From positions 1 through 64,000 of the forward strand of contig JBHIFL010000007.1 of the NCBI GenBank assembly GCA_046761065.1: a DNA stretch of 64,000 nt, read 5' to 3'. Shown here piece after piece: positions 20,739 to 33,248 of the stretch; position 1 is the stretch's first letter; each line of letters opens with the position of its first letter. The position numbers were made by a program, and so were the translations under genes. The notes under the pieces were generated by a model. That model did no database searches. It was not told the DNA's origin and saw nothing but the letters and a program-made list of their open reading frames with translations. This stretch comes from Candidatus Heimdallarchaeota archaeon (GTDB lineage Archaea > Asgardarchaeota > Wukongarchaeia > Wukongarchaeales > JBHIFL01).

Positions 20739-22118
20739 ATGGAAAAAAAGTTTTTAACCCTGCTTTGTCTTATTTTGTTGTTTGGAGCCAGTAGCTTCTC
20801 CAAGGCGACTTATACAGGGAGTGAGAAAGCAGTTACAAAGAGTACCCTTTTGTTACAGAACCTTGAACGCCAACAAGCCAACCCAATGCATACTGTCTCA
20901 GAGGAGACCATTCAGTGGACAAACACCTATGGCGGTACTGAGGATGATACAGCATTGTCAATAATTCAAACGTCCAATGGCGGCTATGTTTTTGCCGGAT
21001 CCACTGGCTCATGGCCTAATGATAATGCTTGGCTTGTAAAGATTGACACTTATGGAAATGTGCAGTGGACCCAAATTTATAACTTCTCTTCTGTAAATGC
21101 AGTTATCCCGACAGCCGATGGTGGCTATGCACTCGCTGGAATCCAGGGTGGGACTCTCGGATCCCCCAGTGACGCGTGGTTAGTGAAAACTGATGATCAC
21201 GGAGTGGTCCAGTGGAATCAGACCTATGATTGGAAGGATCATGATGAAGCAGAGTCATTAATTCAAACGAATGATGAAGGGTTTATACTGGGTGGCTCCA
21301 GTTCTGACTTTGATGGAGATTGGAATGGCTGGCTAGTGAAGATGGATATCAATGGGAAACTCTTGTGGAATCAGACCTACGGAGGATTATCTCACGATTA
21401 TATTCATGTGATCATTCAAACAGTGGATGGAGGGTTTGCTTTTGCTGGAGACACAAGGTCCTACGGGGCGAGTATTATAGATGGCTGGCTAGTGGTAACC
21501 AATGCCCACGGTGAGATGAAGTGGAATCGAACTTATGGTGGTCCAGGTTTCGATAGGGTTTATTCAATGTTACAGATGGTAGATGGGGGTTTTGCACTTG
21601 TGGGGACGACTTCATCCTATGGAGCAGGAGAATATGACGCATGGCTAGTGAAAACCGATAGTAATGGAACCATAGAGTGGATACGGACCTATGGAGGGCC
21701 TTTTCACGATAATGCATACTCAGGAATCATGACAGCCGACAGTGGTTTCGCGCTAGGGGGAGCAACTAACTCATATAGAGTTAACTCAGTAACATTGGAT
21801 TTCTGGTTGGTAAAACTCGATATTAATGGGGTTCTCCAGTGGAATCAGACATACGGCGGCGAGCAAGATGAGGAATGCAAATCCGTTATTCAGACCGCTG
21901 ATGGTGGGTTTATACTCGCCGGACGGACTCGTTCCTTCGGAGCAGGCGGGTGGGATGCCTGGCTAATAAAAACAGACGCTTGGGGGGTCGCGCCGGATAT
22001 ATACATTCCGCAACGCGATTGGTTTGTGATTGGATTACTGGGTAGTCTTGCTCTTGCTGCTATTATGGTGATAGTCCTTTATGTTCGGGGGTATTGGAGA
22101 TTACGAAAATGGCCCTAA
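20739..22118 (+). CDS. Membrane-anchored surface protein with seven ~52-aa repeats (probable beta-propeller)
   Basis: Signal peptide; 7 copies of W..TYGG...D...SIIQT.DGG..LAG...D.WLVKTD..G; C-terminal TM and basic tail. Confidence 0.85.
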   Translation: MEKKFLTLLCLILLFGASSFSKATYTGSEKAVTKSTLLLQNLERQQANPMHTVSEETIQWTNTYGGTEDDTALSIIQTSNGGYVFAGSTGSWPNDNAWLVKIDTYGNVQWTQIYNFSSVNAVIPTADGGYALAGIQGGTLGSPSDAWLVKTDDHGVVQWNQTYDWKDHDEAESLIQTNDEGFILGGSSSDFDGDWNGWLVKMDINGKLLWNQTYGGLSHDYIHVIIQTVDGGFAFAGDTRSYGASIIDGWLVVTNAHGEMKWNRTYGGPGFDRVYSMLQMVDGGFALVGTTSSYGAGEYDAWLVKTDSNGTIEWIRTYGGPFHDNAYSGIMTADSGFALGGATNSYRVNSVTLDFWLVKLDINGVLQWNQTYGGEQDEECKSVIQTADGGFILAGRTRSFGAGGWDAWLIKTDAWGVAPDIYIPQRDWFVIGLLGSLALAAIMVIVLYVRGYWRLRKWP

Positions 22119-25285: not shown

Positions 25286-26737
25286 ATGAACAAAAAAGGG
25301 CTGAATCTGCTCTTCTTGGTTCTGCTTCTTGGGGTTATTGGTCTACCCTACACTAATGATGTAGCAATAGATCAGAGAGTCGCTAGAAATGTGATCCTTC
25401 TGCAAAGCCAAGACCAATCACAAATCAGGTCTCAACTAGCTACTGTTGGGGACGATATGCAGTGGAATCGGATTTATGGTGGCGATGATGATGATTGGGC
25501 ATCCTCAGTCATCGAGACGGTGGATGGAGGGTTTATTTTCACAGGAGCCACTGCTTCTTTCGGAAAGGGTATTAACTACGACAGTTGGCTAGTGAAGACG
25601 GATGCATATGGCGTGATCGAATGGAATCAGACCTACGGTAGTTTGGGTGATGATTTAACATACTCAGTCATCCAAACGTCAGATGGCGGATATGCACTTG
25701 CCGGGTGGACTGGTATCCCGATGGCTGGGGGGGACAGTTGGCTAGTAAAGACCGATGCGTATGGTGTAATGGAGTGGGATCAGACATATGGCAATGAATG
25801 GTATACAATTTCAAAATCGATAATCCAAACTGCCGATGGCGGATATATGCTTGCTGGATATATTCTTTCCTTAGAAACAAATAATTATGATGCTTGGCTG
25901 ATGAAGACCGATGCAAACGGCGACATACAATGGAAACTTACTTATGGTGGACCAGGAACCGATAAGTTTTTCTCTGTCATCCAGACGGATGATAGTGGAT
26001 ATGCCTTCGCTGGATACACCACTTCGTTCGGGATGGGTGAAGAGGACTTCTGGTTAGTAAAGACTGATGCTAGAGGAGTGGTAGAGTGGACACAAACCTA
26101 TGGTGATGCCGGAGAGGAACAGGCATATGGAATAACCCAAACAACAGATGGTGGATTTGCAATCATTGGTCATACTACTTCCTTCGATGCGGTTGTTAGT
26201 GATGTGTGGTTGGTAAATACTGATGCACACGGAGTGATGAAGTGGAATAAGCTCTATGGTGATTCTTTACTTGAGTGGGATAAACTCTACGGCGGTTCTT
26301 CGTGGGATGAGGCATATTCAATTATCCAAACAGCAGAAGGCGGGTTTATCCTCGCTGGACAAACTCACTCGTTCGAGGGTCATAAAGATGCTTGGTTGGT
26401 GAAGCTCGACACCTATGGGGTGATGGAGTGGAACAAGGTCGTAGGTGGTTCGGAGGATGATATTGCAAATAAAGTCATTCAAGTAACAGATGGTAGTTAT
26501 GTTCTCGCAGGATCGACCTTTTCATTTGGGGCAGGTGGAAGGGATGCTTGGCTTGTGAAAATAGGCCCACCCAGTATCGCGTCTTCTACTCGTTTTATTT
26601 ATAATATGGCTGTATTCATTCTATTTGCATCTTTTACAATTATAAGACTTTGGAAAAAAGCTCCGTATATATATGGATTAATTATGCTTACAGCTGCAAC
26701 GATAGCCATCTTGAAACTTTGGAAAAAAAGGCTATGA
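25286..26737 (+). CDS. Membrane-anchored seven-repeat surface protein, paralog of 20739..22118
   Basis: Same repeat unit (W..TYG..IQT.DGG..WLVKTD..G) seven times; signal peptide; two C-terminal hydrophobic segments. Confidence 0.85.
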   Translation: MNKKGLNLLFLVLLLGVIGLPYTNDVAIDQRVARNVILLQSQDQSQIRSQLATVGDDMQWNRIYGGDDDDWASSVIETVDGGFIFTGATASFGKGINYDSWLVKTDAYGVIEWNQTYGSLGDDLTYSVIQTSDGGYALAGWTGIPMAGGDSWLVKTDAYGVMEWDQTYGNEWYTISKSIIQTADGGYMLAGYILSLETNNYDAWLMKTDANGDIQWKLTYGGPGTDKFFSVIQTDDSGYAFAGYTTSFGMGEEDFWLVKTDARGVVEWTQTYGDAGEEQAYGITQTTDGGFAIIGHTTSFDAVVSDVWLVNTDAHGVMKWNKLYGDSLLEWDKLYGGSSWDEAYSIIQTAEGGFILAGQTHSFEGHKDAWLVKLDTYGVMEWNKVVGGSEDDIANKVIQVTDGSYVLAGSTFSFGAGGRDAWLVKIGPPSIASSTRFIYNMAVFILFASFTIIRLWKKAPYIYGLIMLTAATIAILKLWKKRL

Positions 26738-31487: not shown

Positions 31488-33248
31488 TTAGTTTCGCTTT
31501 TTTCTGGAAGCTCTCAGTACAATAGATATACCTAAAGCTCCACCGACAACTAGGATGCAGGAAGCAAATTCAGATACGACTGTAGTGGTCACGAGGGTAG
31601 TAATTGGCATAGTAGTGACAACTGTTTCGACCCCGATAACCGTTTGCCCTATCGTTGGGGGACCGGTTGCAAGATGATAATCAATCTCTGTCGTTCCTTC
31701 CTTATAATCTACCAGTGTGCTCCCGCAATGCCTTGCTAAATTCCAGGAATGATAATCGTACGTGTCCGCGGCATCTAGCGAAATTACCTTATCGACAGTA
31801 CCTACTCTTAGTACACCATCGGTGTTGGGCCCTTTCTGAATATTTTCATAGCGTATGGTCATATCCGGACCGAGCACGACTCCAGTAACGTCCTTCTTGA
31901 AGGCTGCATTTTGGTAACCGTACCACAAGGGAATCACTTTGCACTCCTCAGCCATTATCTCCGCTGCCCTTTCATATAGGGCTTTTCGGATATTTAAATC
32001 GAGCGTTAGTCTAGCATTGTAAAGCAACGAATCTAGTTCGGGATTGAGAGGATCCGGTTTCGGGCCCCAGTTTGCCCCAGAACTGTGGTAAAATGGGTAT
32101 AGGTATGTATCGATATCCAAATAGTCTGGATACCAGCCGAGCAAGAATACTTCCATTTCAGTGGCTTTCCACTTCTGTCTATATTCTGCCCACTCGACGA
32201 ATTGTATAGTAACTTTCATCATTTTTGTTTCTTCGAGAGCAGCCTTAATTATTGCTGCAACAGATGCTTCTTCTGTGCCGTAGTGTGTAGGAGAGTACCA
32301 CAACTCAAATTCGAACGGGTTTGCTTCTGAATAACCTTCAGCAGCTAGTAATTCTCTTGCTTTAGCTAAATCTCTCGTGGGGAATTTTGAGGTAAATTCA
32401 TGGCCCCACATGCCAGGCGCTACCATGGTATAGGCCGGAGTCGTCATACCACTCCACGCTCCCTCGATGATTGCTGCTCTATCCACGGCATAGGCGATAG
32501 CTTGTCTGATGTTCTGGTTGATCCTCGGATACAGGGTTTCATTGGGCAACACAAGGTAACGGACTTGGCTGCTGGGAGGTAGGATGACATCAATATCATC
32601 CGCTTCATTCGCCATCAACTCTGTTATCTTGGTGGCAGTAAGGTGTCTGTGGGCAAGATCAATGTCTCCCGCTTCCAGAGCGGCTGCGAGTAGGGCATTC
32701 GACGCGTAGTATGTGATAATGACTTTAGAGTTCTTCACTGGATTTGGGTAATTATAGTAATTGGGGTTTCGTTCTAATACTACTTCGACGTCCCTCGTCT
32801 CGGATGTCAGTCTGTAGGGGCCTGTGCCCCATGCTATTGCTCCATCTACTCCGTCGGCCTCTCCGGAAACCACGGATACACTATCCTTCTTGAGGACAAT
32901 AGCAATGGAATTCGTCAGTATAATTTCGAAGAATGGAAAATTGTCCTTCAGAATGAATTGGACATGATTATCATCCACTACCTCTATTGAATGGATCATA
33001 TCCGCTAAGAGGAATGCAGCATCTTGACCCATATTAATAGCTCTCTCGAAAGACCATTTCACATCGTGAGCGGTGAGTGTCGTGCCATCTTTAAACTTCG
33101 CATCTGTACGTAGTTCATACGTGAATGTCGGTACTTCTTTCTGTGCAAAGACCGGTGTAGTTGCAGCAGTTCCTAGACCCAGTACGCAAATGAGCAAAAG
33201 TAGTCCATAGAGTCTTCTTGTATTTCTCATTTTGATTTTTCTCTCCAT
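31488..33248 (-). CDS. dppA: Family 5 (Dpp/Opp) substrate-binding protein, circularly permuted, with Thr-rich linker and C-terminal TM anchor
   Basis: TFTYELR..AKFKDG..LTAHDVKWSFER directly after the signal peptide; GTGPY, RQAIAYAVDR, GWYPDY.D.D; the normally N-terminal LRVG..SLD..LV.Y..LA block is at aa 478-528. Alternative start at 33230. Confidence 0.88.
   Translation of the reverse strand: MERKIKMRNTRRLYGLLLLICVLGLGTAATTPVFAQKEVPTFTYELRTDAKFKDGTTLTAHDVKWSFERAINMGQDAAFLLADMIHSIEVVDDNHVQFILKDNFPFFEIILTNSIAIVLKKDSVSVVSGEADGVDGAIAWGTGPYRLTSETRDVEVVLERNPNYYNYPNPVKNSKVIITYYASNALLAAALEAGDIDLAHRHLTATKITELMANEADDIDVILPPSSQVRYLVLPNETLYPRINQNIRQAIAYAVDRAAIIEGAWSGMTTPAYTMVAPGMWGHEFTSKFPTRDLAKARELLAAEGYSEANPFEFELWYSPTHYGTEEASVAAIIKAALEETKMMKVTIQFVEWAEYRQKWKATEMEVFLLGWYPDYLDIDTYLYPFYHSSGANWGPKPDPLNPELDSLLYNARLTLDLNIRKALYERAAEIMAEECKVIPLWYGYQNAAFKKDVTGVVLGPDMTIRYENIQKGPNTDGVLRVGTVDKVISLDAADTYDYHSWNLARHCGSTLVDYKEGTTEIDYHLATGPPTIGQTVIGVETVVTTMPITTLVTTTVVSEFASCILVVGGALGISIVLRASRKKRN

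Follow-up and report, generated by a model that had tools for sequence, protein, structure and literature searches.

The gene at positions 31488-33248 of the window, by which we mean the whole stretch of 64,000 nucleotides that was analyzed, raises the question of whether a substrate-binding protein of the DppA/OppA type may carry its N-terminal block after its normal C-terminus and still be a complete protein, and what such an arrangement implies for the membrane segment at the end of the chain. The earlier note on this DNA had read the gene as a natural circular permutation, and a re-reading of the sequence confirmed its open reading frame, strand, length, and every residue number: the minus strand carries a single uninterrupted frame of 586 codons (Table 1). 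The motif TFTYELR occupies aa 41-47, KGPNTD aa 472-477, and the segment running from GVLRVGT to HLAT aa 478-528 (31665-31817). The signal peptide is predicted from its sequence to be cleaved at ...PVFAQ/KEV, and P32, V33, A35, Q36, E38, V39, and P40 around this site are invariant in the clade described below.

Table 1. Coordinates of the permuted gene, the parts of its product, the other operon genes, and further permutants of the same genome (positions given without a contig refer to the window)
Feature	Position	Strand	Description or basis
Whole gene, stop codon included	31488..33248	-	586-aa circularly permuted family-5 (DppA/OppA-type) substrate-binding protein
Predicted Sec-type signal peptide, aa 1-36	33141..33248	-	Basic n-region, LLLLICVLGL core, ...PVFAQ/KEV
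Fold body, aa 37-473	31830..33140	-	'TYTF.LR' strand of domain II to the normal C-terminus
Junction KGPNTDG, aa 472-478	31815..31835	-	Old C-terminus to old N-terminus
Relocated N-terminal block, aa 479-528	31665..31814	-	VLRVGTVDK...LVDYKEGTTEIDYHLAT; support from HMM, PDB, and model
New clade-specific C-terminal strand, aa 529-545, GPPTIGQTVIGVETVVT	31614..31664	-	DSSP strands in the model; conserved in the clade
Thr-rich linker ending in VSEF (558-561), aa 546-561	31566..31613	-	Candidate sorting motif
Hydrophobic membrane segment (562-578) and basic end RASRKKRN (579-586), aa 562-586	31491..31565	-	Sequence; model helix 564-585
DppB-type permease, 462 aa, insert of ~110 aa	30053..31441	-	Pfam BPD_transp_1 and BPD_transp_1_N; E. 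coli DppB alignment
DppC-type permease, 313 aa	29102..30043	-	Pfam BPD_transp_1 and OppC_N
DppD-type ATPase, 394 aa, insert of ~60 aa	27849..29033	-	Pfam ABC_tran and oligo_HPY; E. coli DppD alignment
DppF-type ATPase, 327 aa	26839..27822	-	Pfam ABC_tran and oligo_HPY
Second permutant, 620 aa	G000:C10:65603-67465 = L009:208-2070	+	Pfam profile 144-363 first, then 1-141
Third permutant, 638 aa	G000:C72:15461-17377 = L008:361-2277	+	Profile 209-366 first, then 2-209
Probable fourth permutant, ~608 aa	G000:C1:~62478-64301, within L007	+	Front HMM 427-500 weak (i-E 0.015), then 78-348

The order of the chain was established by profile and sequence searches. Pfam SBP_bac_5 (PF00496) gave one match, in which aa 41-393 correspond to profile positions 18-367 of 368 (243.4 bits against a cut-off of 32.4), and the first 17 profile positions are absent from the front of the protein. 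All matches to PDB and NCBIfam begin at approximately aa 38-41 and finish at approximately aa 470; because they are equivalent to residues 59-504 of the 507 in E. coli DppA, the body extends to the normal C-terminus and is without the first ~58 residues. When a full-length HMM of 513 positions was made from 46 canonical relatives, aa 39-472 matched HMM 91-512 (469.5 bits) and the C-terminal block, aa 479-528, matched HMM 34-83 (41.2 bits, conditional E 3.6e-15, i-E 9.6e-12 against the 2617 ORFs of the genome). The canonical order, in which the N-terminal block comes first, is therefore reversed, with HMM 91-512 preceding HMM 34-83, and the seven positions 84-90 are the sole part of the model unaccounted for. 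These are the two DppA-type profile matches in swapped order that the earlier note had expected. The C-terminal piece of 67 aa, searched alone, matched residues 11-62 of the peptide-binding protein in PDB 8upi_A (E 0.0018 in 177,635 sequences), and the body matched residues 72-360 of the same chain. Significance for the moved block was obtained only with the full-length HMM from canonical relatives and with the PDB sequence search, and scans of the 67-aa piece with Pfam and NCBIfam returned no match. Judged from these comparisons of sequence, the match between the block and the canonical N-terminus is far above chance.

Canonical chain order is found in E. coli DppA (PDB 1DPP and 1DPE; 8Z1Y and 8Z1Z in the DppABCDF complex) and in the cluster-C/PF00496 proteins OppA, GbpA, NikA, and AapF. 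In E. coli DppA (precursor numbering), the cut falls in domain II and opens the hairpin turn 'KWEVSEDGK', which is flanked by strands '...GLAE' and 'TYTFHLR'. The equivalent of DppA residues 1-57 comes after residue 507. The permutant also differs from DppA in that it appears to be held by a C-terminal membrane segment and is not free in the periplasm.

An AlphaFold model based on 53 sequences (pLDDT 83.5, pTM 0.80) has the three-domain bilobed DppA/OppA fold and matches DppA from residue 58 to the end. Region 471-540, which includes the junction and the moved block, was modeled at pLDDT 75-95, except for residues 491-500 (pLDDT 47). The order of the elements was set against that in a P0009 model (pLDDT 94.8); P0009, a canonical relative, runs through strand 21-26, helix 41-50, strands 55-57, 64-66, and 69-75, a turn, strand 80-85, and helix 99-112. 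In the permutant, the end of the chain runs through strand 478-484, helices 493-499 and 502-508, then strands 513-515, 522-524, and 532-545. The start of the chain supplies strand (30-)37-46 and helix 60-73, and the elements of the two models correspond one to one. DSSP assigned strands to 532-545 and 30-46, and the pLDDT of residues 531-540 is ~93. In the order of the model, the clade-specific strand 532-545 (TIGQTVIGVETVVT) stands at the position of the canonical 'SWEV' hairpin strand, and we infer that it probably pairs with the new N-terminal strand. Model confidence (pLDDT), element order, and sequence homology together support the placement of the moved block at the canonical N-terminal site. 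By descent and fold, the protein is a member of family 5/cluster C, and its topology is permuted.

The junction is short, at seven residues, which may suggest a domain-swapped oligomer, in which each chain lends its C-terminal block to the fold of its neighbor. We consider this very unlikely, since both termini of canonical proteins belong to one domain, the monomer model shows, with high confidence, a fold closed by a single chain, and equally short junctions occur in many other permutants of the family.

Relatives were drawn from a search of 5.8 billion proteins, and the survey that the earlier note had proposed found the permuted order to be common to a clade. P0003-P0008 (65-72% identity, 471-587 aa), which originate from JGI, Logan, and NCBI, plus ENA members in their clusters, align over 81-100% of the query, with 99-100% for the five full-length ones. 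All have the same chain order and the QKGP.TDG junction, and the new strand and the tail are likewise shared, as is the moved block, in which many residues are invariant; two of these clusters contain members named Candidatus Heimdallarchaeota and Candidatus Hodarchaeota. P0130, a fragment with 61% identity, has the same order, junction, and tail, and QKGP.TDG is kept in all seven of seven clade members.

These relatives bear directly on the source of the swapped order. The genome is a draft of 234 contigs with an estimated contamination of 8.2%, and a chimeric contig or a frameshift may, in principle, join a 5'-truncated gene to the start of another copy. An assembly or gene-calling artefact of this kind is nevertheless close to inconceivable: the frame is unbroken throughout its length, six to seven distinct protein clusters of different origin (61-72% identity) show the same order, 7-residue junction, and tail, and the signal peptide and C-terminal anchor are placed as a complete exported protein requires. 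Conservation also argues against the view that the C-terminal block is a leftover partial duplicate on a protein that lacks its N-terminal block and works differently or poorly. Although only seven sequences covered the block in the alignment behind the fold prediction, and residues 491-500 are of low confidence, it is conserved like the body (G478, L480-T484, D486, K487, I489, L491, D492, D495, Y497, and D498 are invariant), it is otherwise confidently modeled in the canonical order of elements, and the exact segment missing from the front is present at the back, apart from the seven profile positions noted above. We regard a leftover duplicate as highly improbable. A natural circular permutation, with the N-terminal block after the normal C-terminus, is borne out by the profile matches, the fold, and the relatives alike.

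Among 1.84 billion representatives, the cut at HMM 84-90, with ~50 residues moved, was found only in the P0002 cluster and P0130; this hairpin cut point is seen only in the Heimdall/Hod-type clade. A FastTree analysis of the best hits only, with sequences restored to the canonical order and a midpoint root, recovered the clade as monophyletic (support 1.0) on a long stem, nested among canonical proteins and adjoining a mainly bacterial group (Bipolaricaulota-like; support 0.99). A search of metagenome and genome contigs returned only distant canonical bacterial proteins with 21-31% identity. A junction query of 400 genomes of the same phylum produced matches in the source genome and in one other, G067, which has a distant permutant of a different type, and nowhere else, and the GTDB class consists of three genomes only, the other two of which are without the family. 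The G067 protein, encoded in a single-contig 4.9-Mb genome of the same phylum (G067:C1:1908270-1910045, plus strand, = L022:1123-2898), is a family-5 permutant of 592 aa with HMM 349-502 first and 26-348 second, and ends in a helix and a basic tail. A link to RNA circularization or BHB splicing was also considered and found no support; the permutation is older than relatives at 61-72% identity.

In our view, the gene product very probably works as the membrane-tethered binding protein of a Dpp/Opp-type ABC importer, with the normal three-domain cluster-C fold and a rotated chain order. After cleavage of the signal peptide, the chain would begin at the 'TYTF.LR' strand of domain II and continue to the normal C-terminus, from which the 7-residue link KGPNTDG would lead to the normal N-terminal block of ~50 residues. 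Pairing of the new strand at the end of the chain with the new N-terminal strand would then re-close the opened hairpin, and the Thr-rich linker, VSEF, single membrane helix, and basic end would act as a C-terminal tether. The gene may have originated from an in-frame fusion of two tandem copies followed by the loss of the outer parts.

The tail had previously been described as resembling a PEF-CTERM sorting signal, and this description holds for its shape. A motif, a membrane helix, and a basic cluster stand at the extreme C-terminus after a Thr-rich linker and are conserved in the clade, with VSEF at the motif position in five relatives and VPEF, which contains a true PEF, in P0005. Archaeosortase C is the enzyme partnered with PEF-CTERM (PMC5244752), and the PEF-CTERM/archaeosortase C system (Haft et al., 2012, cited in PMC5244752) shows the same three-part signal, with a motif ending in EF and a Thr-rich linker. 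The present genome also has an archaeosortase-family gene, the only exosortase/archaeosortase-family gene detected in it (G000:C29:17058-17936, plus strand, = L001:1417-2295), which scored 38 bits against a family-signature cut-off of 23. Against membership stand the predominance of VSEF in the clade, the score of this gene with its best full-length model, ArtC (29.9 bits against a cut-off of 100, and far under every subfamily cut-off), and the result with the PEF-CTERM model: no NCBIfam family matched the last 50 or 70 residues at E <=10, in a search in which HMMER filters may drop short weak matches. The tail is thus best described as PEF-CTERM-like, and not as a member of PEF-CTERM, and the chain is possibly processed by the divergent archaeosortase of this genome. 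The pattern [VIT][SPTAN]E[FLMI], which was chosen post hoc, directly precedes the helix in 12 of the 54 C-terminal helix-plus-basic tails of the genome, while 0.66 would be expected. PGF-like tails were noted in two proteins on another contig, C112. In the window, the ORFs at 25286-26737 (plus strand, 483 aa; no Pfam match) and 20739-22118 (plus strand, 459 aa) also end in a hydrophobic segment and a basic tail.

The protein is a real and conserved DppA/OppA-type permutant, and it occurs in a family and a genome in which permutation is recurrent. By Pfam and the full-length HMM, four of the eight family-5 genes of the genome are permuted, each at a different cut: HMM 84-90 in the present gene (C7), ~218-224 on C10, ~243-283 on C72, and ~348 on C1. 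The C10 protein ends in a Thr/Pro-rich linker, VPEL, a membrane helix, and KRKTK, and its gene is followed by one for a DppB-type permease; the tail of the C1 protein consists of TVTVAEF, a helix, and KRKKK. These two proteins are sisters on the tree (0.99) despite their different cuts. The C72 protein is cut at the domain I/III hinge; it carries an LPGC resembling a lipobox at the N-terminal end along with a Thr-rich linker, and lacks a C-terminal helix. Permutants account for 25 of the best 120 database hits, namely, six of the present type, seven cut near 349, and 12 cut near 255-262, and the 349 and 255-262 groups form sister clades (support 1.0). The junction query of the 1.84 billion representatives returned ~35 further permutant clusters. 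The other family-5 permutants (cuts near 350, 255-283, 218-224, and 120-139) share the family and the same junction of old C-terminus to old N-terminus, and several have PGF- or xEF-type C-terminal tails, whereas their cut points are unlike the 84-90 of the Heimdall/Hod-type clade.

If permutants arise by tandem fusion and the loss of outer parts, two further database proteins are the intermediates expected. P0230 (1202 aa) is a tandem fusion of two canonical family-5 copies, and P0132 (1036 aa) is a nested double form, in which one copy is split into HMM 8-354 and HMM 351-511 and encloses a second, whole copy (HMM 32-512); the nesting site is the loop where many permutants are cut. The searches run found no tandem-fused intermediate near the 84-90-cut clade, and, for this reason, a tandem-fusion origin is only inferred for the present gene.

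The earlier note had further suggested that the permutation moves the membrane tether to a different face of the protein. As geometry, this agrees with our analysis because the exit shifts from domain I to the domain-II hairpin; as the reason for keeping the permutation, it is no more than a possibility, and the same genome contains a canonical-order protein on C63 that has the same kind of tail and the C72 permutant, which has an N-terminal lipobox instead. Of 55 permutants, 22 have C-terminal tails; these 22 span at least four cut types, and some carry PGF motifs. Among 135 canonical proteins, only two have such tails. The sample is confounded by clade and by archaeal versus bacterial origin. 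We lean toward the view that the new tether exit is a tolerated accident and not an adaptation, with a possible link to C-terminal anchoring. A more speculative proposal, which we hold to be rather doubtful, is that family-5 proteins form a natural permutation series, re-cut via tandem-fused intermediates, in which the cut point is co-selected with C-terminal (archaeosortase-type) tethering. It is put forward because a single Asgard genome holds four cuts, the cut differs between sister clades, and tails are distributed as described above, with the same confounding by clade and taxon. If this were true, the position of the tether exit relative to the permease-docking face would matter for transport.

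In the literature searched, no account of a natural permutation in a cluster-C binding protein was found, and the only published natural permutant of an ABC binding protein found there was TpMglB-2 (Tp0684), which Treponema pallidum uses as a sugar binder of cluster B and which is designated 'Type Ic / Cluster Bc' (PMC4990184). Similar to the present protein, TpMglB-2 is a permuted and tethered ABC binding protein with the N-terminal strands of lobe 1 near the C-terminus; it differs in its N-terminal lipid anchor and in the poor conservation of its moved part (PMC4990184), whereas the moved block of the Heimdall/Hod-type clade is clearly homologous. A link between topology and anchoring was proposed by its authors, without proof (PMC4990184). 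Every sequence and fold match of the present protein is to cluster C, with none to the MglB-like cluster B, and the permuted DppA-type protein is an analogue of TpMglB-2 and not a member of 'Type Ic / Cluster Bc'.

Natural circular permutants are rare test cases for the evolution of protein topology, and the present one is a clean permutation in the best-studied peptide-binding class (DppA/OppA), with clear homology on either side of the cut. The four cut points in one genome, together with the tandem-fused forms, represent a ready series for testing the duplication-and-trimming model. The same series may be used to investigate how the positions of the chain ends and tether affect 'Venus flytrap' closure and permease docking, and may show which loops of a widely used biosensor scaffold accept new termini or insertions. 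Pfam annotation displays such permutants as truncated or split matches, and they are easily mis-annotated.

The permuted gene is the first of a complete five-gene operon on the minus strand, in the order binding protein, permease, permease, ATPase, and ATPase. Neighboring genes encode a peptidase S58, an amidohydrolase, and a saccharopine dehydrogenase, which is consistent with the use of peptides or amino acids. In DppA, D436 and R383 (precursor numbering) clamp the dipeptide, and D436 binds the N-terminus of the peptide (PMC12136057). Asp375 of the permutant, which is invariant in 53 sequences, aligns with D436. R383 falls within an insert specific to DppA, and no residue of the permutant aligns with it, and, because of this, the ligand could be a non-peptide; on the sequence evidence, we consider short peptides to be the likely ligand. 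Two of the other operon products have inserts. That of the DppB-type permease, located after the third membrane helix, includes ~4 hydrophobic segments, two of which are repeat-like (IIFCLGIIVSFALIEE and ALFCLGIILAFALAER), and that of the DppD-type ATPase, inside the nucleotide-binding domain, contains two long hydrophobic segments, an unusual feature in a cytoplasmic ATPase subunit.
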